In this document: positions 4,121-59,655 of the stretch, one piece after another | Layout: each line of letters begins with the position of its first letter | Numbering within the stretch: the first letter of the stretch is position 1 | NCBI GenBank assembly: GCA_049303905.1 | Contig: JBAQNP010000020.1 | Coordinates: forward strand, 78,309 to 142,308 | Direction of reading: 5' to 3' | Source of the DNA: Candidatus Moraniibacteriota bacterium | Lineage (GTDB): Bacteria; Patescibacteriota; Minisyncoccia; Moranbacterales; UBA2206 | DNA length: 64,000 nucleotides | Made by a program: the position numbers and the translations under genes | The notes under the pieces: generated by a model | Database searches by the model: none | What the model saw: the letters and a program-made list of their open reading frames with translations, nothing else | What the model was told of the DNA's origin: nothing

Positions 4121-4315
4121 TCTCTTTACTTTTTCTTTCCGCAAGAAAAAGTAACAAAAAGAACTCTCAGCTGAGCTCACGTGCCAATAAATTCTTTGTT
4201 TGTCGGCTAAAATTTATAATTCGGTCCGACCAAATGCGTCGGGCCTCAAACAAAATAAATTTCTTAACTCAGACTCACTCGAATTTATAGTGGCACGTTT
4301 CGCAAGGCTGAAATT
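4121..4315 (+). ncRNA. Candidate structured RNA element, copy A (unclassified)
   Basis: Starts 3 nt after the alaS stop. It has an 11-bp hairpin (TACTTTTTCTT-TCCGC-AAGAAAAAGTA), a long-range helix (ACGTGCC…GGCACGT plus ATAAATTC/GAATTTAT), an inner hairpin (GGTCCGAC/GTCGGGCC) and a 3' CGCAAGGCTGAAA tail. Copy B at 38377 has the same architecture with compensatory changes. Confidence 0.4.
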
Positions 4316-38372: not shown

Positions 38373-38376
38373 TTCC

Positions 38377-38558
38377 TTACTTTTTCTTTCCGCAAGAAAA
38401 AGTAACAAAAAGAACTCGGAGCTATGCTACGTACTCCAATAAATTCTGCGTTCGCTGGCTAAATTTACTAGGCTTGATGAGTACATCAAGCTAAGATGAA
38501 TAAATTCTTAACGCCAGCTCACTTGAATTTATATTGGAGTACTCCGCAAGGCTGAAAA
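38377..38558 (+). ncRNA. Candidate structured RNA element, copy B (unclassified)
   Basis: Same architecture as 4121-4315: identical 5' hairpin and linker (TACTTTTTCTTTCCGCAAGAAAAAGTAACAAAAAGAACTC) and 3' tail (CCGCAAGGCTGAAA). The long-range helix is GTACTCC/GGAGTAC (ACGTGCC/GGCACGT in A) and the inner hairpin GCTTGATG/CATCAAGC (GGTCCGAC/GTCGGGCC in A). Confidence 0.4.
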
Positions 38559-42645: not shown

Positions 42646-42972
42646 ATGAAAAAGTTAAATGATAGTAAGAATGAAGATTTAATGCAAGCTATTTTGGCGC
42701 TTGAAAACAAGCAAGAAGCCAAGATGTTTTTGCGTGACCTTTTGACGGAAAAGGAAATTTTAGAATTGGGCAATCGCTGGAAAGCGGTGCAAATGTTAGA
42801 CGCGAAAAAAACTTATTCTGAAATTGAAAAAGAAACCGGCCTTAGCTCAACTACTGTGGCGCGAATTTCCAAATGGTTTCAAGCAGGCACAGGCGGATAT
42901 GGTTTAATGCTAAAAAGAATTTCTAAGAATCATCACAGAACCCCTTCTAGTTCTAGAAAGCGGTTGATTTAG
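42646..42972 (+). CDS. TrpR-like (YerC/YecD family) DNA-binding protein, copy 1
   Basis: FLRDLLTEKEILELGNRWKAVQML…TYSEIEKETGLSSTTVARISKWFQAGTGGY matches the Trp-repressor-fold YerC family. Confidence 0.7.
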   Translation: MKKLNDSKNEDLMQAILALENKQEAKMFLRDLLTEKEILELGNRWKAVQMLDAKKTYSEIEKETGLSSTTVARISKWFQAGTGGYGLMLKRISKNHHRTPSSSRKRLI

Positions 42973-43079
42973 ATTTTTAGTTATATATCTTCACAAACCT
43001 CTTTCTGGGATAGGAAGAGGTTTTTTAAATTTGGACCTCTTAATATTAGTACATTAAAAATTAAATAGAGGAGAAGAAA

Positions 43080-43934
43080 ATGAAAAAAAATCTGACTTTG
43101 GGAATTCCTTCTGGTTCACTTTTTGATTCCACAGTAGCCTTGCTTCGAAAAGTAGGAATCGAAGTGGTGGTTAACGGGCGCAATTTTATGGCGGAAATTA
43201 GAGGAAGCGATATTTTTTCTCGCGCAATAATTATGCGACCGAATGATCTGCCTCTAGCGCTCAAAAACGGAATTGTTGACGGCATCATCACGGGGCTTGA
43301 TATGTGTCTCGAAAGTGGTTTAGGAAAAAAGCTTTGTATAATAGTAGAGCTTAACTTTTCCAAAAAATCTAAAGTGCCGGCTCGAGTGGTAGTTTTCTGT
43401 CGAGAAAGTGATTTAGATGAAATAGTTGATTCCGGAGAAATCTTAGTTTCATCAGAATATATGGAATTGGCGAAAACTATTTTCAAAAAATCGCAGATAA
43501 TTTTCTCTACTGGTTCGACTGAAATCAAAGTCGCTATTGCGGAATTTGGTTTTCGATACGGCGTTGGCGTGGTCGAAAGTGGAAAGAGTCTTAAGGACAA
43601 CAATCTCAAGATTGTGAAAGTTATCCTGACCACTCCGGTAATTTTCGCTGTAAGAAAAGAAAACCTGGAATTTCAAATCTTCGGCCAAATGCTCAAGGGT
43701 GCGTTGGAAGCCGAGATTTATCAGTTGGTAAAATTCAACGCGGATTCAAAGGACAAGGATCAGTTGATTGAAATTTTGCCAGCTATGGAATCGCCAACTA
43801 TTAGCAATCTTGCTGATGGCATGATTGCAATCGAGACGGTTATTGCTAAAGAAGCAATCACCGATTCGATCATAGCAATTAGGAAAAATGGCGGCAGAAA
43901 TATTCTCGTACAAAACATTAACATCTCCGTGTAA
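43080..43934 (+). CDS. hisG: ATP phosphoribosyltransferase, long form (HisG), copy 1
   Basis: Full-length match to long-form HisG: N-terminal LTLGIPSGSLFDSTVALLRKVGIEV, PRPP loop GVVESGKSL, C-terminal regulatory domain ILPAMESPTISNLADG…GGRNILVQNI. Confidence 0.7.
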   Translation: MKKNLTLGIPSGSLFDSTVALLRKVGIEVVVNGRNFMAEIRGSDIFSRAIIMRPNDLPLALKNGIVDGIITGLDMCLESGLGKKLCIIVELNFSKKSKVPARVVVFCRESDLDEIVDSGEILVSSEYMELAKTIFKKSQIIFSTGSTEIKVAIAEFGFRYGVGVVESGKSLKDNNLKIVKVILTTPVIFAVRKENLEFQIFGQMLKGALEAEIYQLVKFNADSKDKDQLIEILPAMESPTISNLADGMIAIETVIAKEAITDSIIAIRKNGGRNILVQNINISV

Positions 43935-48306: not shown

Positions 48307-48759
48307 CTAGTCGATTTGTGACAAAAAATGATTGAGAATCGGATGGACTTCGATTCTAACTTTCGATTTTTCTGTGGATAGTAACTCCCAAGGTGTTTTC
48401 CAGCCAGCGATTGCAATATCATCATCTTTAGGGATGAAGAGATGACCAGGGTTTCCCAAAAATTTTGCAACTCCGTAGAAAGTCGTGATGTCTTTTCTTT
48501 CGGTGAATAGGTTGAATTTATTGGGTGAAATACCCCAAAAATTTACTTGATTTGGAAGTAGCCCTAACTCCTCCCAAAGCAAGCGTTTAATGGTTCCATC
48601 TGGATTGGCATCCTTATCCTTGAGAGTTTCAAGAGGAAAAGACACCATTCCAGCTTCTTTTTTTATTTCGGGCTTACTTCGCAGTTCCTTGACGGTCAAA
48701 ATGCGACCATCTAAAAAAAGTAAAAGCCCTACTCCGATAGCCCCATGTTTTACTGTCAT
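48307..48759 (-). CDS. Hypothetical protein (150 aa)
   Basis: Convergent with the kinase gene; no recognisable motif. Confidence 0.4.
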   Translation of the reverse strand: MTVKHGAIGVGLLLFLDGRILTVKELRSKPEIKKEAGMVSFPLETLKDKDANPDGTIKRLLWEELGLLPNQVNFWGISPNKFNLFTERKDITTFYGVAKFLGNPGHLFIPKDDDIAIAGWKTPWELLSTEKSKVRIEVHPILNHFLSQID

Positions 48760-51217: not shown

Positions 51218-52309
51218 ATGAAAATAAATACGGGTGACAATAAAAAAGTTTTCTTTTTCTACCTAGTTTTGGTAGATTTTATTATCGCAATGCAAATTGC
51301 GGCGGTTTCTTTTTTGCAGGTAAAATCAATTGATTTCTTTTTTTCTTTTGTCATTTCCTTTTTAGTTTTCTTGGCTTTCTCTGAAATTTTTGAAAGTAGC
51401 AGGAAGATAAAAAGTATCATGCGTCCAGGAATGATCTTTATGATCTTAGGAAGTTTGATTAATTTTTTTCTAAGTGACGCAAGTTTTTTTGCTCTAGGCA
51501 GAGTTATGTCTGGCTTAGGCGCCGGTATGGTAATGGCAAGTCAAATTGGAATGATTTGGCATGATAATTCGGAAAGAATGAAAAACTTTTTTTTGTTTTT
51601 TCTGTTTTCTTTTATCTCTGGTTTGATTTTTAGTCCCGCGCTAGTTAGCTTTCTATCCGGCCCAGCGCTAGGAGAAATGAAAGTGGTTTTTGTTTTAGGC
51701 ATAGCATTGCCCGGCTTGGTGATGGCAGGAAATATGAATGGAATTTTCACGATGGTTTCAAATACGGCGTCGGATGCAACGAAAGCTTTTTTTGATATAA
51801 GTGGAGATGATAATCTCGGTGCTGGTGCAAAAAAAATAGCCGTTACTACGGCAAGAAGAATTGTCTATGTCTTTTTTGATTATTGGTTTTCTATCGCTTG
51901 TGCCGCACTAGTTGGTCTTTTGAATTTTTGGGGATTGTCATTTTGGAAAGTAGTTTTTATCACTTGGGTTTTCGATTTTGCTATTGCTTTTGGTTTTATG
52001 ACTATAAGTGAAAAAAGCGGGCAGGATATAACTTTAGGAGAATCATTTCGCCGAGCAGCTGAAGCTATAAAAGTGAACTCAAAAATAATGGGACATTTCG
52101 CTTTTGCATATTTGAATATTAAGGCGATAATTTGGGATGGCCCAGAACAGGTTGTGATTTTTTTCAAAAAAGAAATCGGCGGAACAAAAAAAATGACCCT
52201 GATTCTTGTTGGCTTAACTTTCATCCAAGGATTTTTTTGGGCTTGGATTTATAGTCTTGGATATGAAAGCGTATCTGAGCTTATTGAAAGAATGTTGCAA
52301 ATAAGCTAA
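51218..52309 (+). CDS. Polytopic membrane protein (~10 TM helices)
   Basis: 363 aa, hydrophobic throughout; no transporter signature recognised. Confidence 0.4.
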   Translation: MKINTGDNKKVFFFYLVLVDFIIAMQIAAVSFLQVKSIDFFFSFVISFLVFLAFSEIFESSRKIKSIMRPGMIFMILGSLINFFLSDASFFALGRVMSGLGAGMVMASQIGMIWHDNSERMKNFFLFFLFSFISGLIFSPALVSFLSGPALGEMKVVFVLGIALPGLVMAGNMNGIFTMVSNTASDATKAFFDISGDDNLGAGAKKIAVTTARRIVYVFFDYWFSIACAALVGLLNFWGLSFWKVVFITWVFDFAIAFGFMTISEKSGQDITLGESFRRAAEAIKVNSKIMGHFAFAYLNIKAIIWDGPEQVVIFFKKEIGGTKKMTLILVGLTFIQGFFWAWIYSLGYESVSELIERMLQIS

Positions 52310-52334
52310 AATAGTTTTAGAATAGCAATAGCGT

Positions 52335-53636
52335 ATGAATATATTATTTATCTCTAAGGACTTATCCGGAGCTGATCTGGCTTATCGGTTGAAAAAGGAA
52401 GGGCATAGCGTCCGTCTTTTTATTGAAGATAAAACCCAAAATCATAACTTCGAGGGTTTGGTGGAAAAAACTAAGGACTGGAAAAATGATCTTGAATGGG
52501 TCGGCAAAAACGGACTAATTGTTTTTGATAGTTCTGGCTATGGAGATATTCAAGATAACCTAAGAAAAAAAGGTTATTTGGTAGTTGGCGGAAACAAGTT
52601 TGCTGATCGATTGGAACATGACAGGCAATATGGACAAAAAATAATTTCAGTATGCGGAATGAAAATTATTCCGTCAATTAATTTTAATTGCGCTAAATCC
52701 GCCATTAAATTTGTGGAAGAAAATGAAGGTCCGTGGGTAGTCAAACAAAATGGCCATATCAATACTAGCTTCAACTATGTCGGACAACTCAAAAATGGCA
52801 AAGATGTTATTTCAGTTTTGAAAAATTATAACAGAAATAATAAGAAGGAATGTGTTTCAATTGATTTGCAAAAGAAAATTGATGGAGTTGAGATTGGTGT
52901 AGCAAGGTATTTTAATGGCAAGGACTGGGTTGGACCGATTGAAATTAATTTGGAGCACAAGAGTCTTTTTAACGGTGATTTAGGACCGAAAACATACGAG
53001 ATGGGAACTTTGCTTTGGTATGAAGAAAATGAAAAAAATAAACTTTTTCAAAAAACTTTAGCAAAAATGAAGCCATATTTGAAGAGTATAAAATTCAAAG
53101 GAGACATTGATATTAATTGTATCGTAACAAAAGATGAAATTTTTCCCTTAGAGATAACCCCACGTTTTGGCTGGCCGTCAACCCATCTTCATGAGGAAAT
53201 TCATCTGTCTCCATGGGGAGAATTTTTAAAAGCAATCGCCGAAGGCAAGCCCTATGATTTGAAATACAAAAAAGGATATGGAATTGTGGTCTTGCTTTCT
53301 ACGCCTCCTTTTCCATATGTAGTCAGAACAAAGAAATATTATCCGGAAGGAATGGATATTTTTTTCAAAAAAGAATTATCCAAAGAAGAAATAGAACGAA
53401 TTCATTTGGAGGAAGTTTCTCTGAGAAAAAACACAAAAGATCAGCTTTATATTTCAAGCAAAACAGGTTTTGCGCTTCATGTTACGGGAATGGGAAAAAC
53501 AGTAGTGGAAGCCAGAAAAAATACTTATGATCTTGTTCGAAATGTTGTCATTCCGAAAATGTTTTATCGAACAGATATTGGATTGAAGTTTGTCGAAAGA
53601 GATCAGAAAAAACTTGAAGAATGGGGATTGATATAG
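52335..53636 (+). CDS. ATP-grasp-like protein, distantly PurD-like
   Basis: 433 aa, the size and domain order of PurD-like ATP-grasp enzymes; similarity is weak. Its last 55 nt are duplicated at 57784-57838. Confidence 0.4.
   Translation: MNILFISKDLSGADLAYRLKKEGHSVRLFIEDKTQNHNFEGLVEKTKDWKNDLEWVGKNGLIVFDSSGYGDIQDNLRKKGYLVVGGNKFADRLEHDRQYGQKIISVCGMKIIPSINFNCAKSAIKFVEENEGPWVVKQNGHINTSFNYVGQLKNGKDVISVLKNYNRNNKKECVSIDLQKKIDGVEIGVARYFNGKDWVGPIEINLEHKSLFNGDLGPKTYEMGTLLWYEENEKNKLFQKTLAKMKPYLKSIKFKGDIDINCIVTKDEIFPLEITPRFGWPSTHLHEEIHLSPWGEFLKAIAEGKPYDLKYKKGYGIVVLLSTPPFPYVVRTKKYYPEGMDIFFKKELSKEEIERIHLEEVSLRKNTKDQLYISSKTGFALHVTGMGKTVVEARKNTYDLVRNVVIPKMFYRTDIGLKFVERDQKKLEEWGLI
53582..53636. repeat. Direct repeat, copy 1 (3' end of the ATP-grasp gene)
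   Basis: ATTGAAGTTTGTCGAAAGAGATCAGAAAAAACTTGAAGAATGGGGATTGATATAG; 51/55 identical to 57784-57838 (all differences A>G). Confidence 0.6.
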
Positions 53637-53698
53637 AAAATATAATAAGCTATGTTTGACTAAAATTGGTGTTTATAACAATCTATAGCTGATTAAAA

Positions 53699-54607
53699 AT
53701 GGAAAAATTAATTCTTGATTTATTAAAAATAGAATCATACTCAGGCAATGAAAAGAAAGTTGCTGATTTTATTATTTCAAAATTAAAAGGATTTGAAATT
53801 GAATGCCAACTTGTAGCAAAAAATCGTTTCAATATAATTGCTAAAAAAGGGAATTCAAAAATTTGGTTATTGGCTCATATGGATACTGTCAAGAGTTGGA
53901 TCGAGCCTAGGATTGAAGGAAATAAGATTTATGGACGAGGAGCGGTTGATAACAAGGGCAATATAGCTTCTGCTATTGAAGTTGGAAAACGACTTGAGAA
54001 TATAAATCTATGTTTTACTGTTGGCGAGGAGTACGATTTCATTGGTGCAAAATCAGCTAGGAAAATTATTAAAAATGATCTGGTTGTGGTTATGGAGCCG
54101 ACTAATTTTGAAATTTATTCTGGTCAAAGAGGAATGATTGAATTTGAGATTTCAACAAAAGGAAAACAAGGTCATAGTGCCTATGCTAATAGTAAAAATA
54201 ATGCAATTCAAAAAATAGCAAATATTATAGTTAGTTTTGAAAGAAAAAAATGGACAGCTTTTAATGTTGGGAAAATTGAAGGTGGTATAGCGGCCAATAT
54301 AGTTGCTCCAGTAGCGAATGCAATTATATCTGTGAGACCTGAAACGACAAGAGAATACAATTCAATTCTTCGGGATATAAAAAATTTCAAAATATTAAAC
54401 AATATTCCTCCTGTTGTAAATCAGAAAATAAAAGGGAAAATAAAAAAAGCATTTACCGAGATGGCTTTCTTTGAAAATAGTATTGTTTTTGGAGCGGGAG
54501 ATTTTAAACAGGCTCATAGTGACAAGGAATATATACTCAGAAAAGATCTCAAATTAGCCCCAGAAAAAATCATCAAGTTGCTTGAAAAAATTTCTAAAAA
54601 TGCTTAG
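53699..54607 (+). CDS. M20-family metallopeptidase (ArgE/DapE-like, short)
   Basis: Metal ligands HMDTV and GRGAVDNKG. Confidence 0.6.
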   Translation: MEKLILDLLKIESYSGNEKKVADFIISKLKGFEIECQLVAKNRFNIIAKKGNSKIWLLAHMDTVKSWIEPRIEGNKIYGRGAVDNKGNIASAIEVGKRLENINLCFTVGEEYDFIGAKSARKIIKNDLVVVMEPTNFEIYSGQRGMIEFEISTKGKQGHSAYANSKNNAIQKIANIIVSFERKKWTAFNVGKIEGGIAANIVAPVANAIISVRPETTREYNSILRDIKNFKILNNIPPVVNQKIKGKIKKAFTEMAFFENSIVFGAGDFKQAHSDKEYILRKDLKLAPEKIIKLLEKISKNA

Positions 54608-54698
54608 GAGTTTTATTTAAAGATAGTTGTGTCGTTGTTGACATTTATGGCAATTGTAGTAATATTAAATTTAGTAATTAAAATATAATTTAGTTAAT

Positions 54699-55994
54699 TT
54701 GATAATGTTTAAAAGTATGAAATCAATAAAAAATACAAAAATTGCTGTTATTGGTATGGGTTACGTTGGGTTGCCTTTGGCGATTGCCTTTGGAAAGAAA
54801 GTTGAAACTATTGGATTTGATATTAATAAAAAAAGAATACAAGAATTGAAAAATTACGAAGATAGGTCGAAAGAAATGAATAAAGATGAGATTAAAAACG
54901 CAAAGAAGCTTTGTTTCTCGGATAATATTTTAGATTTAAAACAATGCAATTTTTTTATCGTTGCAGTTCCTACTCCAGTTGATCAGTTTAAAATACCAGA
55001 TTTTAGCCCCTTGATAAAAGCGAGTGCTTCCATAGCGAAAGTATTGAAAAATGGAGATGTTGTTGTCTATGAATCGACGGTGTATCCAGGAGCAACTGAA
55101 GAAATTTGTGTTCCTGTTTTAGAGAAAGAATCAAAGTTAGTTTATAATAAGGATTTTTTTGTTGGGTATAGTCCAGAAAGAATTAGTCCTGCGGATAATA
55201 ATAACCTACAGGATATTGTAAAAGTTACTTCAGGATCTAATATAGAGATTGGTAAATATGTGGATAGTGTTTATAGGGAGATTATAACAGCGGGAACTTT
55301 TTTAGTTGAGGATATGCGAGTCGCAGAGGCTTGTAAGGTTATTGAAAATACGCAAAGAGACATCAATATAGCATTTATGAATGAAATTTCTATTGCTATG
55401 GAAAAAATGGGAATAGAAACGCGAGATGTCTTGGCGGCCATGAAAACAAAATGGAATGCGCTCTCTTTTGTTCCTGGGCTTGTTGGTGGGCATTGCATTG
55501 GAGTTGATCCTTATTATTTAATTCATAAGGCTTATGAATTTGGATATAGTATGGAAGTTTCAAGAAATGCAAGAATCGTGAACGATGGAATGCCAAAATT
55601 TATTGCTGAAAAAGTGGCAATTAAAATATGCGAGAATAAAATAAATCCAGCAAAGACTAGAGTGCTTATAATGGGAGCTTCGTTTAAGGAAAATTGTGCA
55701 GATATTAGAAATGCCCGTCCATTTGATATTGCAAAAGAGCTAAAGAAATATGGAATGAAAGTTGATTTTTTTGATCCTATTGTTGATGCAGAAGAAGTTA
55801 AAAGGGTGGAAAAAGTTGTTCTTACTAAAAATCCAGCCCTTGGTTATTATGATGTTGTAATTTTAGCGGTGGCGCATAAAAAATTTATAGATATGGGAGT
55901 TAAAAAAATTAGAAATTTTGGTAAAAAAGACAAAAACATTCTTTTCGATATCAAGGCGATTTTCGGAAAAAATGATTCGGATTTAAGATTGTAA
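54699..55994 (+). CDS. Nucleotide-sugar dehydrogenase (UDP-glucose / UDP-ManNAc dehydrogenase family)
   Basis: Rossmann GMGYVGLPLA; catalytic-Cys region GGHCIGVDP. Confidence 0.8.
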   Translation: MIMFKSMKSIKNTKIAVIGMGYVGLPLAIAFGKKVETIGFDINKKRIQELKNYEDRSKEMNKDEIKNAKKLCFSDNILDLKQCNFFIVAVPTPVDQFKIPDFSPLIKASASIAKVLKNGDVVVYESTVYPGATEEICVPVLEKESKLVYNKDFFVGYSPERISPADNNNLQDIVKVTSGSNIEIGKYVDSVYREIITAGTFLVEDMRVAEACKVIENTQRDINIAFMNEISIAMEKMGIETRDVLAAMKTKWNALSFVPGLVGGHCIGVDPYYLIHKAYEFGYSMEVSRNARIVNDGMPKFIAEKVAIKICENKINPAKTRVLIMGASFKENCADIRNARPFDIAKELKKYGMKVDFFDPIVDAEEVKRVEKVVLTKNPALGYYDVVILAVAHKKFIDMGVKKIRNFGKKDKNILFDIKAIFGKNDSDLRL

Positions 55995-56006
55995 TTTTTG
56001 TAATAT

Positions 56007-57242
56007 ATGATAAAATTTCCCATCATCATAAAGAAAGATATCGGATTGGATAATTATAATAAATGGCAAAAATATTATAATAGAAAAGAAAATGATCATG
56101 AATGTTTTAAGGAGGAAGGACTCTGGAGAAGAAGTCAGTGCGTTATAAATAAAGAACATTCAGATTGGTTAAATCAGGATGATAAAAGAAGAAGAATTGT
56201 GCACTATGAGCATGAGTTTGGAGTTTCAAAAAAAGAAAAATTTTTTAATTTTATACTTAAAAAAACATACATTTGGATTAGTTTATGCTTGCCAGCCGAA
56301 GAAATAGATGAATACTATTTGAATATCATAAAGAAGCTTGAAAATAATAAGTTCTGGATAAGGAATTATACCAGAAAAGATCTCTATAGTTGCGGGGATC
56401 TTTTTTTATCGATTAAAAGAAAAAAGAATACAAAAGAAGATATAGAACAAAAAAGATTTTTTCCTGAAAATTATGAAATTTTGGAGATAAATTTTTATTC
56501 TAAAAATAATTATAAGGATGAAAAATTTATTTCAAAGCCATGGCTGGTCTTGAAAAATGGCGTAAGGAAAAAGGATGTTAGGGGTAATCCTTTTATTACA
56601 GATGATCCATCGATTATATTGAAATATCTTCCAGCTCAAATAGAGTTGGGTGGCGGAGCGTCAATTGAAGCGGGTATTTACCCCCTTCATTTTTTACATG
56701 AAATTTATAGTGTTTGTGATAGAGAAAAGAATTTTATTTTTAATTATAAAAAAGACAATATCGTAAGAGAAATTATCACAAATCCGAGAAAATTGATTGA
56801 TAAAATTAGTTTAATGCACAAAAAAATTATCAATACTAATCCTAATCGTTTTTACAAAACATTAAAATTTTTGTACGATAAAAATTTTATAGTTGGACCA
56901 ATAATAACCAATAATTTTGATGGACTCATAAGACAAGTTGGTTTGAATGAATTGTATGTGAGGAAATATAGTGACAATATTTTTCCCAATGTAGATTTTC
57001 ATAAGGACGCAAAAAGTTTGATTGTCGTTGGTTCTCATGCTGATAGAAGGCGTGTTCAAAAAACTGCTAGAGAAAAAGGACTTAAGGTTATATATGTTGA
57101 TCCGGAGGGTTATTGGAATAAAAAAGGTTTTTTTGTTCCTTATCCACTGGAATCTCCACAGAATAACGATATAATAATAAAAAGTGAGGCAGGTGATGTT
57201 TTTTGCATATTGAAAAAGATTATAGGAAAATTAGTTTGTTAA
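56007..57242 (+). CDS. Fusion protein: unknown N-terminal domain + SIR2-like (sirtuin-fold) C-terminal domain lacking the Zn module
   Basis: The C-terminal half has sirtuin motifs LGGGASIEAGI (GAGIS-like), ITNNFDGLIRQ (TQNIDGL-like) and LIVVGSHADRR (VVGTSL-like). No CxxC…CxxC zinc ribbon lies between them. Confidence 0.45.
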   Translation: MIKFPIIIKKDIGLDNYNKWQKYYNRKENDHECFKEEGLWRRSQCVINKEHSDWLNQDDKRRRIVHYEHEFGVSKKEKFFNFILKKTYIWISLCLPAEEIDEYYLNIIKKLENNKFWIRNYTRKDLYSCGDLFLSIKRKKNTKEDIEQKRFFPENYEILEINFYSKNNYKDEKFISKPWLVLKNGVRKKDVRGNPFITDDPSIILKYLPAQIELGGGASIEAGIYPLHFLHEIYSVCDREKNFIFNYKKDNIVREIITNPRKLIDKISLMHKKIINTNPNRFYKTLKFLYDKNFIVGPIITNNFDGLIRQVGLNELYVRKYSDNIFPNVDFHKDAKSLIVVGSHADRRRVQKTAREKGLKVIYVDPEGYWNKKGFFVPYPLESPQNNDIIIKSEAGDVFCILKKIIGKLVC

Positions 57243-57341
57243 ACTAAAATAAAAAATTTATATTGCTTAGAGCAACAAATTATGTTGCCCTTTTTTTGTG
57301 TTTTATGCTACAATAAAATCACTAAAAGCTAAGATAAAAAT

Positions 57342-57818
57342 ATGGCGGAGAATATTTATGTTTCACTGGATGAAGCGAGGGAGGAAATTAAGAAACGATG
57401 GAATGATGTGGAACTCCGAAAAAAAGTGGAAGAAGAGTTGGAGGATAATTTTATGCCAGAATTTAAGGATAATCCTCGGGCAGTTCTTTTTCGTCAAATA
57501 TGTCCGGCAGACAATGGCTTTGAATTCTTCTTTTATTCCGGGAAATATATAAAGGCAGAACCTTTAATATTGGAATATCATGATGATATGTTTGTTTCTT
57601 TTAATGAAGAGAAAAAGGGGCTTGGCCGCGTAAGGGTAAAATTAGATGATGGATCTCCTGCAATGATAGATATAATGAATTTTCATGAAAATGAAAAAAA
57701 GAAGCTAGGCGAATGTGCTTTAAAGACAGGTGAAAAATTAGTTGATTTTCATCATAATCTTTTTGATTTATTGAATTATAAAATTGAAGTTTGTCGAAAG
57801 GGATCAGGAAAAACTTGA
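57342..57818 (+). CDS. Hypothetical protein (158 aa)
   Basis: Its last 12 codons lie in the duplicated 55-bp repeat, read in a different frame from the ATP-grasp gene. Confidence 0.35.
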   Translation: MAENIYVSLDEAREEIKKRWNDVELRKKVEEELEDNFMPEFKDNPRAVLFRQICPADNGFEFFFYSGKYIKAEPLILEYHDDMFVSFNEEKKGLGRVRVKLDDGSPAMIDIMNFHENEKKKLGECALKTGEKLVDFHHNLFDLLNYKIEVCRKGSGKT

Positions 57819-57838
57819 AGAGTGGGGGTTGATATAGA
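57784..57838. repeat. Direct repeat, copy 2
   Basis: ATTGAAGTTTGTCGAAAGGGATCAGGAAAAACTTGAAGAGTGGGGGTTGATATAG. Confidence 0.6.
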
Positions 57839-57885: not shown

Positions 57886-57914
57886 TTGACAATATTTTTT
57901 ATGTTTGCTATACT
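57886..57914 (+). promoter_or_regulatory. Promoter of cassette copy 2 (TTGACA-17-TATACT)
   Basis: Consensus -35 and -10 with a 17-nt spacer. Confidence 0.55.
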
Positions 57915-57940
57915 TTATCAAAGTAAAGTGGTATAAAACG

Positions 57941-58267
57941 ATGAAAAAGTTAAATGATAATAAAACTGAAGATTTAATGCAAGCTATTTTGGCGTTGGAA
58001 AGCAAAAAAGAAGCCAAGATGTTTTTGCGTGACCTTTTGACGGAAAAGGAAATTTTGGAATTGGGTAATCGCTGGAAAGCGGTGCAAATGTTAGACCAGA
58101 AAAAAACTTATTCTGAAATCGAAAAAGAAACTGGCCTTAGTTCAACCACAGTGGCGCGAATCTCCAAATGGTTTCAAGAAGGCACAGGTGGATACGGCTT
58201 AATACTAAACAGAATTTCCAAAAATCATCACAAAACCTCTTCTAGTTCTAGAAAGCGGTTGATTTAG
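57941..58267 (+). CDS. TrpR-like (YerC/YecD family) DNA-binding protein, copy 2
   Basis: About 90% identical to 42646-42972. The ORF-track start at 57905 is a TTG; the ATG at 57941 matches the paralog. Confidence 0.7.
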   Translation: MKKLNDNKTEDLMQAILALESKKEAKMFLRDLLTEKEILELGNRWKAVQMLDQKKTYSEIEKETGLSSTTVARISKWFQEGTGGYGLILNRISKNHHKTSSSSRKRLI

Positions 58268-58371
58268 ATTTTTAGTTATTTATCTTCACAAACCTCTTTC
58301 TGGGATAGGAAGAGGTTTTTTTTATGCCTCTTAATATTGGTACATTAAAAATTAAATGTAAGGAGAAGAAA

Positions 58372-58773
58372 ATGAAAATCAACAAATCAATGATTAACAG
58401 TGAAATTTTGAACAAGGTAAGTTTCGGCAGAGCCATTCATCGGGATGGAACTAAGGCGCCGGACTTGATTGATGTGATTTTGCAAAATCATCTCAACGGA
58501 CAAGTGCTCTATGGTGCTTCTATGAACCAGGAAAATTTCGCAGAAACATTGGAAATTGGTTTTGTTGTTCTTTATAGCAAATCCAGAAAGACCCGCTGGT
58601 TCAAAGGAGAAACAAGCGGAGACAAGCTTCAAGTCGTTAATATTTTCTTAAATTGCAATAACGATCAATTATTGATCCAAGTTATTCCAATTGGAGCAGG
58701 CGTGTGTCACGAAAAAGATGAAAATGGCATTTCAAAACCAACATGCTTCAGCAAATTGTTGCTGGAAGTATAA
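58372..58773 (+). CDS. hisI: Phosphoribosyl-AMP cyclohydrolase (HisI)
   Basis: SRKTRWFKGETSGDKLQVVNIFLNCNNDQLLIQVIPIGAGVCH matches the HisI core. The start is set at the ATG preceded by AAGGAGAAGAAA (track start 58324). Confidence 0.7.
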   Translation: MKINKSMINSEILNKVSFGRAIHRDGTKAPDLIDVILQNHLNGQVLYGASMNQENFAETLEIGFVVLYSKSRKTRWFKGETSGDKLQVVNIFLNCNNDQLLIQVIPIGAGVCHEKDENGISKPTCFSKLLLEV

Positions 58774-58800
58774 ACTAAAAAAACAAAAGGAGAAAAAGAA

Positions 58801-59655
58801 ATGAAAAAAAATTTGATTTTGGGAATTCCTTCTGGTTCACTTTTTGATTCTACGGTGGCTTTGCTTCGAAAAGTAGGAATTGAAGTGGTGGTTAATGGGC
58901 GCAATTTTATGGCAGAAATTAGAGGAAGTGATATTTTTTCTCGCGCGATAATTATGAGACCTAATGATCTTCCTCTGGCGCTCAAAAACGGAATTGTTGA
59001 CGGCATCATCACGGGACTTGATATGTGCCTAGAAAGTGGCTTGGAAAAAGAGCTTTGTATAATGGTAGAGCTTAACTTTTCCAAAAAATCCAAAGTGCCG
59101 GCTCGAGTCGTGGTTTTCTGCCGAGAAAATGATTGTGATGAAATAGTTGATTCAGGAGAAATCTTAGTTTCATCAGAATATATGGAATTGGCGAGAAATA
59201 TTTTCAAAAAATCGAAAATAGTTTTCTCTACTGGCTCGACTGAAATCAAAGTCGCTATTGAGGAATTTGGTTTCCGATACGGCGTTGGCGTGGTCGAAAG
59301 TGGAAAGAGCCTTAAGGACAATAATCTCAAGATTGTGAAAGTTATCCTGACAACCCCGGTGATTTTTGCTGTGAGAAAAGAAAGTCTGGAATTTGAAATT
59401 TTCGGCCAAATGCTCAAGGGGGCGCTGGAAGCGGAGATGTATCAATTGGTGAAATTCAATGCAGATTCAAAAGACAAGGATCGGCTGATTGATATTTTGC
59501 CTGCTATGGAATCACCAACCATCAGCAATCTTGCTGATGGCATGATCGCAATCGAGACTGTTATTACTAAAGAAAAAATCACTGATTCGATTATAGCAAT
59601 CAAGAAATCGGGAGGCAGAAATATTCTAGTACAAAACTTGAATATTTCTCTGTAA
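58801..59655 (+). CDS. hisG: ATP phosphoribosyltransferase, long form (HisG), copy 2
   Basis: About 90% identical to 43080-43934. Confidence 0.7.
   Translation: MKKNLILGIPSGSLFDSTVALLRKVGIEVVVNGRNFMAEIRGSDIFSRAIIMRPNDLPLALKNGIVDGIITGLDMCLESGLEKELCIMVELNFSKKSKVPARVVVFCRENDCDEIVDSGEILVSSEYMELARNIFKKSKIVFSTGSTEIKVAIEEFGFRYGVGVVESGKSLKDNNLKIVKVILTTPVIFAVRKESLEFEIFGQMLKGALEAEMYQLVKFNADSKDKDRLIDILPAMESPTISNLADGMIAIETVITKEKITDSIIAIKKSGGRNILVQNLNISL

Follow-up and report, generated by a model that had tools for sequence, protein, structure and literature searches.

The 64,000-nt window analysed here (positions 78,309 to 142,308 of contig JBAQNP010000020.1, assembly GCA_049303905.1, from a Candidatus Moraniibacteriota bacterium) contains a gene, here called SIR2L, that encodes a sirtuin-fold domain joined to an N-terminal domain specific to its family. 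We rate SIR2L as a new family of the sirtuin fold, in which the accessory domain and the biosynthetic setting in the genome are also new. Our reading, to which we assign a probability of roughly 0.4, is that SIR2L may be an NAD+-using enzyme that transfers ADP-ribose to a small anionic metabolite of the sugar-nucleotide type; we infer both the substrate and the chemistry. A sequence-only reading of the same stretch had suggested an anti-phage role, and we consider SIR2L more likely to be a biosynthetic enzyme than an anti-phage NAD-destroying protein. The gene and its two domains are located as follows.

56007 to 57242, plus strand: SIR2L gene, ATG start, 411 amino acids (open reading frame call and translation).
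56007 to 56618, plus strand: N-terminal domain (N domain), residues 1-204, alpha+beta with a long beta-hairpin (conservation and model).
56619 to 57239, plus strand: sirtuin-fold, putatively NAD-binding domain, residues 205-411 (Foldseek, hhalign, PDB profile search, and Pfam SIR2 matches in relatives).

SIR2L is a genuine protein-coding gene under selection. Its product is identical to the NCBI entry MFZ2975656.1, which is annotated as a 'hypothetical protein' of a Candidatus Moraniibacteriota metagenome-assembled genome (MAG; candidate phyla radiation [CPR]/Patescibacteria) and lies on a contig of 142 kb, and the antisense strand of 56007-57242 is filled with stop codons. A database search returned 214 homologues, nearly all of approximately 400 amino acids, matched over their full length and unnamed. 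Our conservation analysis used an alignment of 116 of these homologues, which share 33-91% identity with the window protein. Comparison with the 91%-identical orthologue gave a dN/dS of 0.10, indicating purifying selection. The three sirtuin-like motifs quoted in the sequence-only reading, LGGGASIEAGI (residues 214-224), ITNNFDGLIRQ (residues 300-310), and LIVVGSHADRR (residues 338-348), are present as described, and their core residues (G217, N302, N303, D305, G342, H344, A345, D346, and R347) are invariant in the alignment, as is R319. Since this invariance extends over relatives down to 33% identity, the motifs are not due to chance. The protein contains seven cysteines (C33, C45, C94, C128, C237, C400, and C411), none of which is conserved in the alignment, and the absence of any CxxC pair was verified. 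The AlphaFold2 model of SIR2L had a pLDDT of 95.9 and a pTM of 0.92.

A Foldseek search with this model showed that the C-terminal half resembles classical sirtuins and not defence SIR2s. The top PDB match was 1ici_A (Af1-Sir2/NAD; E = 9.4e-7, probability 1.00, TM-score on the target 0.53), followed by many Sir2Tm entries at E values of approximately 1e-5 (classical sirtuins ranged from 9e-7 to 1e-4) and then by SIRT2, whereas the defence protein DSR2 reached an E value of approximately 7e-3 at best. With hhalign, the SIR2L family aligned to Sir2Tm with a probability of 95.9% (E = 5e-9), residues 214-314 being placed on Sir2Tm residues 20-110; in its central part, the Sir2Tm sequence used was consistent with the PDB alignment from our profile search. 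This alignment paired GGGAS (G215-S219) with GAGIS, L227-H228 with F33-R34, and N302, N303, F304, and D305 with Q98, N99, I100, and D101, respectively; because GGGAS pairs with GAGIS and NNFD with QNID, the residues of the nicotinamide and ribose pocket are retained. Conservation of G215, G217, and S219 among the 116 homologues is 90% or higher. A search of the PDB with the family profile found Sir2Tm, Af2, and Af1 at E values from 1e-4 to 6e-3 (Sir2Tm, 1e-4). The assignment needed such profiles and the structure, as searches with the single sequence were marginal in Pfam (SIR2 PF02146, 12.9 bits against a cutoff of 24 bits, E = 0.11), NCBIfam (CobB, E = 0.008), and the PDB (Hst2, E of approximately 1). 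PF02146 was matched by 59 of the 116 relatives at E<=0.01, the best E value being 6.6e-8.

The hhalign alignment stops at residue 314, short of the strand that carries the catalytic His, and the position of the latter was obtained by ungapped extension, which placed H116 of Sir2Tm on K320 of SIR2L (R in the consensus), beside the invariant R319. No conserved His was found between residues 306 and 341 in the 116 homologues. From these alignments, the catalytic His is absent from SIR2L, with Arg or Lys in its place. The span from D305 to G342 comprises 37 residues in SIR2L versus 87 in Sir2Tm, a difference that explains the absence of the Zn ribbon, which the sequence-only reading had stated. 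The C-terminal half of SIR2L is thus a member of the sirtuin superfamily by its fold and NAD-pocket motifs that lacks both the His and the Zn module. Like the classical sirtuins (PF02146; Sir2Tm, Af1 and Af2 Sir2, CobB, and Hst2), which are its best matches in both sequence and structure, it has a Rossmann-type fold with GAGxS-like and Q-N-x-D motifs and a helical insert between them. Unlike the classical sirtuins, SIR2L has no Zn ribbon, Arg/Lys instead of the His, an invariant GSHADRR in place of the GTS loop, a unique N domain of 200 amino acids, and partners that are small-molecule enzymes rather than acyl-protein substrates.

The N domain folds confidently both inside the full model and alone (pLDDT 87.6 when alone). 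Its novelty was confirmed: the N-terminal 200 or so amino acids gave no match in Pfam, NCBIfam, or PADLOC, and the structure search that the sequence-only reading had proposed yielded a confident fold but no significant counterpart in the PDB (best Foldseek E = 0.06, TM-score 0.22) or in BFVD. The best BFVD hit, a Dit-like or tail-tube fold (E = 5e-3, TM-score 0.25, root-mean-square deviation approximately 20 Å), was treated as a non-match. When the N-domain profile was run against 1.84 billion cluster representatives, it returned 147 proteins (clusters), all with the same architecture of approximately 400 amino acids or fragments of it, except for one protein of 654 amino acids (P0105) in which this architecture is fused to a Nudix domain; because nothing else was returned, the N domain is exclusive to the SIR2L family. 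Its invariant residues are W40, R42, Y156, W179, G185, and R187, and R41, Q44, S52, D59, R61, R62, and E99 are nearly so, with WRRxQ (WRRTQ) and RRR as the conserved motifs. The conserved WRRxQ, S52, D59, RRR, E99, Y156, W179, and R187 suggest that the N domain may bind an anionic ligand, and it may stand in place of the Zn module as the substrate-binding lobe.

The gene immediately upstream of SIR2L encodes a sugar-nucleotide dehydrogenase, with which SIR2L forms a 2.6-kb cassette in the window.

54638 to 57250, plus strand: cassette of the TviB-like gene and SIR2L, 2613 bp, 90.8% nucleotide identity to contig L038 (blastn).
54638 to 54666, plus strand: promoter-like site, TTGACA, a spacer of 16-17 nt, and TAATAT/AATATT, 10 of 12 consensus matches (consensus match only).
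54699 to 55994, plus strand: TviB-like nucleoside diphosphate (NDP)-N-acetylhexosamine 6-dehydrogenase, the partner gene (Pfam, NCBIfam, and adjacency).
57272 to 57298, plus strand: terminator-like hairpin followed by a T-run, just past the SIR2L stop codon (consensus match only).

The partner protein contains the N, central, and C domains of UDPG_MGDP_dh in Pfam. It scored 354.5 bits against the NDP-sugar dehydrogenase subfamily TIGR03026, above the cutoff of 189.8, and 492.8 bits (E = 7.4e-148) against the TviB equivalog NF011729, for which the cutoff is 592; its closest type is therefore TviB, a uridine diphosphate (UDP)-N-acetylglucosamine (GlcNAc) 6-dehydrogenase. The gene ends 12 nt before SIR2L, translation probably begins at the ATG at 54717, which would give 425 amino acids as in the orthologues, and its dN/dS of 0.04 again indicates purifying selection. 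Only the segment 54638-57250 is common to the window and L038, the contig of the 91%-identical orthologue, and the flanking genes differ; the promoter-like site sits exactly at the 5' edge of this common segment. The GC content of the cassette is 0.26-0.31, compared with approximately 0.35 elsewhere. From these sequence features, SIR2L and the TviB-like gene appear to constitute a self-contained two-gene operon that has been relocated in the window lineage.

Our scan of GTDB detected 31 SIR2L loci among 185,579 species representatives, a lower bound since a single peptide pattern was used. These loci belong to Patescibacteria, Bacillota, Actinomycetota, Alphaproteobacteria, Bdellovibrionota, Desulfobacterota, and Bacteroidota. 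In addition, one member (P0022, JGI 3300072015) lies on a contig that carries the archaeal markers Nop10, RadA/Rad51, a Cdc45-like DHH protein, and TrmB, and the family is therefore probably also present in DPANN-type archaea.

Approximately 40 loci were viewed for neighbouring genes, which were grouped by BLAST clustering and annotated by spot checks. The TviB-like dehydrogenase adjoins SIR2L in the window, with P0001, P0004, and P0009, and in Brevibacillus (L003), Larkinella (L004), and a Saccharimonadales MAG (L026). The second recurrent partner is a Nudix protein of 240-280 amino acids (cluster c1), encoded directly downstream of SIR2L in 14 of the 31 GTDB loci. Its Nudix box (GX5EX7REUXEEXGU) has invariant G136, G137, E158, E161, and E162; 7 of 13 members matched Pfam NUDIX, and comparison with PDB profiles gave Nudix at E = 5e-5 and, second, the UDP-glucose pyrophosphatase NUDT22 at E = 1e-3. 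The two proteins also occur as a natural fusion, as residues 425-633 of the metagenomic P0105 match the c1 profile (hhalign E = 2e-36).

In Rhodopseudomonas palustris BisB18, Nocardia, Streptomyces, Pseudonocardiales, Hyphomicrobiales, and Acetobacteraceae, the SIR2L-Nudix pair heads a co-directional gene cluster that continues with a class IV aminotransferase, a HAD phosphatase, a GT4 glycosyltransferase, a protein of 368 amino acids without assignment (c3), an IMPase-like phosphatase, and a methyltransferase, supplemented in some versions by an APH-type kinase, a sugar-1-phosphate nucleotidyltransferase, or a GT15-like gene. An orphan cluster of this kind was seen in an alphaproteobacterium and several actinomycetes (L001, which is R. 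palustris BisB18, CP000301, 143-160 kb, with SIR2L at around 151-152 kb, and L016, L029, L030, and L034). APH kinases occur in L001, L016, and L026. In Tepidibacillus (L010), genes for two ATP-grasp ligases and a major facilitator superfamily exporter come after the SIR2L-Nudix pair; AMP-binding or nonribosomal peptide synthetase genes lie beside SIR2L in Psychrobacillus (L011) and Brevibacillus (L003), and in several CPR genomes an O-methyltransferase gene is located 5 nt ahead of it. The caveat in the sequence-only reading that the neighbours are metabolic turned out to be the main clue, as the conserved partners are metabolic enzymes.

Across genomes, the partner classes around SIR2L thus include NDP-sugar 6-dehydrogenases, ATP-grasp proteins, aminotransferases, HAD phosphatases, and glycosyltransferases. 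The glucuronamide pathway of the Campylobacter jejuni HS:2 capsule uses a UDP-sugar dehydrogenase, an ATP-grasp amidoligase, a transaminase, and a HAD phosphatase, the same classes, which in the case of SIR2L are spread over different genomes; the likeness is one of gene context and serves as a lead rather than a test. The HS:2 pathway is not known to include a sirtuin-fold enzyme.

The catalytic His is needed for deacylation by sirtuins. In SirTM, the catalytic His is replaced, deacylase activity is absent, and ADP-ribosyltransferase activity is robust (PMC4518038). No other class of His-less sirtuins is known to have been characterised. Because the His is lost, the NAD pocket is kept, and SirTM provides a precedent, SIR2L may be expected to cleave NAD+ and transfer ADP-ribose. 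Its acceptor is most likely a small-molecule or sugar-nucleotide metabolite, since every conserved partner of SIR2L handles such compounds. Since both lack the His, SIR2L would by analogy come closest in its mode of action to a SirTM-type ADP-ribosyltransferase, yet it is not a SirTM. In class M sirtuins, as in SIR2L, the catalytic His is replaced (by Q in SirTM) and a conserved Arg is involved (PMC4518038). SirTM, however, keeps a Zn-coordinating domain and has a GVGx[NT]TP motif and an operon link to a macrodomain protein and GcvH-L/LplA (PMC4518038); SIR2L has R/K rather than Q at the His position, no Zn domain, no such motif, and no GcvH-L/LplA operon, and no macrodomain was present among the Pfam annotations obtained for its loci.

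On this basis, we propose that SIR2L would be a cytosolic enzyme of a rare family with a fixed architecture. Its sirtuin-fold domain would still bind NAD+ and hold the nicotinamide in the pocket known from classical sirtuins, and the arginine-rich N domain would most likely take over substrate binding from the lost Zn-ribbon module. SIR2L would cleave NAD+ and, without deacylation, move ADP-ribose onto an acceptor held by the N domain. In the window, this acceptor is presumably linked to the UDP-N-acetylhexosaminuronic acid that the co-transcribed TviB-like dehydrogenase would supply; elsewhere, the Nudix protein may cut the pyrophosphate of the adduct, giving a phosphoribosyl product and AMP, or may remove ADP-ribose that arises as a by-product. 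A glycoconjugate or glyco-metabolite would then be completed by phosphatases, an aminotransferase, glycosyltransferases, methyltransferases, and ligases. In one variant, the carboxylate of the UDP-N-acetylhexosaminuronic acid would be ADP-ribosylated and so activated as a labile ester for amide formation; in another, a (phospho)ribosyl group would be installed after Nudix cleavage. The bolder claim that SIR2L is the first sirtuin-fold enzyme for small-molecule or glycan biosynthesis, with NAD+ as ADP-ribosyl donor to an acceptor derived from a sugar nucleotide, is doubtful, and we regard it as rather unlikely at present.

Two other chemistries were considered. A sirtuin-type N-deacetylation of a GlcNAc-derived intermediate, in which the Nudix protein would clear O-acetyl-ADP-ribose, was down-weighted because the deacylation His is missing and several clusters have deacetylase-like genes of their own, such as M20 in the window and, as read from an N-terminal HxH motif, the amidohydrolase-like c17 in L013 and L022, which had no Pfam match. 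The invariant residues of the nicotinamide pocket argue against a UDP-sugar rather than NAD+ as the ligand of SIR2L.

Several observations weigh against ADP-ribosyl transfer to a small metabolite. The binding of NAD+ by SIR2L is predicted from motifs only, and its second Rossmann half (GSHADRR, DPEG) gave no sequence alignment to sirtuins in the profile search or hhalign. A TviB-like dehydrogenase has no obvious need for an ADP-ribosyltransferase, and a biosynthetic enzyme that consumes NAD is somewhat unexpected in CPR bacteria, whose NAD supply is limited. The partners differ between loci (a dehydrogenase, a Nudix protein, or a methyltransferase), and SIR2L has no obvious partner in several of the CPR loci; a substrate common to all members is therefore uncertain. 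Some loci are mobile or rich in defence genes: L006 contains toxin-antitoxin pairs and an MmeI-type restriction-modification gene, L004 a conjugative element, and L001 SIR2_2 and Mrr genes, and AbiEii lies near P0009. Our literature search found no paper on the SIR2L family and nothing relevant on sirtuins in biosynthetic clusters or on a dehydrogenase-SIR2 defence system.

It is unlikely, in our estimate, that SIR2L acts on a macromolecule, either as an ADP-ribosyltransferase or atypical deacylase of a protein (for example the partner dehydrogenase or a carrier) or as a modifier of RNA ends, for instance by Tpt1/KptA-like removal of 2'-phosphates, with the arginine-rich N domain binding the macromolecule. 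The conserved WRRTQ and RRR motifs would suit such a role, and the His-less SirTM sirtuins are themselves protein ADP-ribosyltransferases (PMC4518038). Sirtuins linked to Nudix and HAD/2H genes in phages have been predicted to function in RNA repair, where the sirtuin was proposed to be an ADP-ribosyltransferase and not a deacylase (Iyer et al. 2022, PMC9503650). SIR2L loci share with those neighbourhoods, as known from gene context, the link of a sirtuin to Nudix and HAD phosphatase genes, and pseudouridine synthase and TatD genes are occasional neighbours. They differ, however, in having glycosyltransferase, aminotransferase, and sugar-dehydrogenase genes instead of 2H, RNA ligase, PIN, and cREC genes. 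The macrodomain, 2H, ligase, and kinase partners typical of SirTM or RNA repair were not found in the approximately 40 loci, no candidate target protein is conserved across them, and RNA repair would have no use for the GT4, class IV aminotransferase, IMPase, NTP-transferase, and TviB-like partners.

We hold it to be no more probable that the sirtuin fold does not consume NAD+ and serves instead to bind NAD(H), ADP-ribose, or another ligand with an ADP or UDP moiety, in the role of a cofactor, allosteric sensor, or scaffold. SIR2L would then resemble other DHS-like NAD/FAD-binding folds, and any catalysis would take place in the N domain, which is highly conserved and rich in invariant polar residues. 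The loss of both the catalytic His and the Zn module and the restriction of the sequence alignment with sirtuins to the first half of the domain are consistent with this possibility, as is the fact that both recurrent partners, the TviB-like dehydrogenase and the Nudix protein with NUDT22 as its second-best PDB match, handle UDP-sugars. However, the sirtuin equivalents of N303 and D305 make contacts to nicotinamide and the attached ribose and are important for cleavage, not for mere ADP binding, and both residues are invariant in SIR2L. The family-specific H344, D346, R347, and R319, which are likewise invariant and lie in the active-site loops, also suggest that chemistry takes place there.

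The least probable of these alternatives is an abortive-infection NADase, in which the N domain would sense phage infection and the SIR2-like domain would then hydrolyse NAD+. Like the defence SIR2 effectors, SIR2L has a sirtuin fold that lacks the canonical Zn ribbon and is joined to a non-catalytic domain, a layout typical of effectors, and a patchy, mobile spread, being found in so few of the GTDB species and, in the window, on a low-GC two-gene cassette; the mobile and defence-rich loci described above would also fit. The sequence-only reading had placed it with the SIR2_2 (PF13289) domains of ThsA, DSR, SIR2-HerA, and SPARSA systems. This assignment did not hold: SIR2_2 was matched by 0 of the 116 members, as opposed to 59 of 116 for PF02146, and PADLOC gave no match for SIR2L (E<=1) and no match to a SIR2 model among 24 relatives. 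Because PADLOC returned nothing relevant for these proteins, we do not file SIR2L under any known defence system. No TIR ThsB, HerA, pAgo, SLOG, or DSR C-terminal domain partner was seen in the approximately 40 loci, and no defence-type partner is conserved across the loci examined. As to the catalytic residues, the TQNIDGL-like motif has its Asn and Asp in every member, as had been anticipated, but the His is missing. A catalytic His is required in ThsA and DSR2, and the PDB entries of DSR2 H171A are consistent with this requirement. SIR2L is structurally nearer to the classical sirtuins than to DSR2 and lacks every tested feature of defence SIR2s except the Asn (N303). The occurrence of SIR2L inside co-directional biosynthetic clusters of seven to nine genes with conserved metabolic partners also argues against a defence role, and the Nudix fusion in P0105 is easier to reconcile with a pathway than with a suicide effector; the defence reading has little support.

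Upstream of SIR2L on the same strand, the gene order in the window is cysteine synthase, an open reading frame (ORF) of 363 amino acids, a PurD-like ATP-grasp gene, an M20 gene, and the TviB-like gene. The features that surround the cassette are as follows.

52335 to 53636, plus strand: divergent PurD-like ATP-grasp ligase (Pfam GARS_A/GARS_C; TIGR00877, E = 3e-29, far below cutoff).
53582 to 53637, plus strand: 56-nt direct repeat, copy 1, at the 3' end of the PurD-like gene.
53699 to 54607, plus strand: M20 deacylase of the ArgE/DapE type, inside the bracket of the 56-nt repeats.
57783 to 57838, plus strand: 56-nt direct repeat, copy 2, 93% identical to copy 1 and 98% identical to positions 2681-2740 (intergenic) of L038.

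The 56-nt repeats bracket the M20 gene, the TviB-like gene, SIR2L, and the ORF at 57342-57818, which suggests insertion or recombination at the SIR2L site. At the end of this ORF, copy 2 encodes the C-terminal peptide of the PurD-like ATP-grasp protein once more, in a different frame; the element may be the scar of a recombination or insertion event or a mobile repeat of small size. The possibility that the ORF at 57342-57818 is a fragment of an ATP-grasp paralogue was rejected, as BLASTP detected no similarity and only the last 56 nt are common at the DNA level. ATP-grasp ligases recur near SIR2L homologues, beside the SIR2L-Nudix pair in L010 and as a PurD-like gene 5 kb upstream in L038; a functional link between SIR2L and the PurD-like gene of the window is only suggestive. 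The latter and the 363-amino-acid ORF, which had no Pfam or NCBIfam match, occupy 51218-53636 between the cysteine synthase and M20 genes and may form a small ligase pathway of their own.

The block flanked by repeats that the sequence-only reading had described around SIR2L is real, its direct repeats (42646-43349 and 57941-59070) being 89-91% identical. They belong to a segmental duplication (42646-43934 and 57905-59655, 89-91% nucleotide identity) of a YerC/YecD trpR-like gene and a long-form hisG; both HisG copies fall in one 90% cluster, and hisI (58324-58773) accompanies the second copy only. Histidine-pathway genes are notable for a CPR (Moranbacteria) genome; nothing ties the trpR-like/hisG duplication to SIR2L function. 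A stand-alone Nudix gene for 149 amino acids lies approximately 7 kb upstream of SIR2L (48307-48759, minus strand), and its product did not cluster with the SIR2L-linked c1 Nudix proteins. A 55-nt direct repeat (91% identity) at 4123-4177 and 38374-38428 has the look of an intergenic hairpin or terminator (TCTTTACTTTTTCTTTCCGCAAGAAAAAGTAAC...).

Sirtuin-fold proteins are known as protein deacylases, protein ADP-ribosyltransferases, and anti-phage NADases. The SIR2L family is compact and well conserved, lacks the catalytic His and the Zn module, and is consistently wired to enzymes of sugar-nucleotide and small-molecule metabolism, an architecture and context that are unexpected for a sirtuin and directly testable, the chemistry being a proposal. 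For annotation, a SIR2 domain without a Zn ribbon next to a domain of unknown function does not by itself indicate defence. If our proposal is true, sirtuin chemistry would extend to the biosynthesis of metabolites or glycans, and a function would be available for orphan clusters in Rhodopseudomonas, Nocardia, Streptomyces, bacilli, and many CPR bacteria. NAD+ would then be a building block or activating group in the glycoconjugate biosynthesis of CPR bacteria, actinomycetes, and others.

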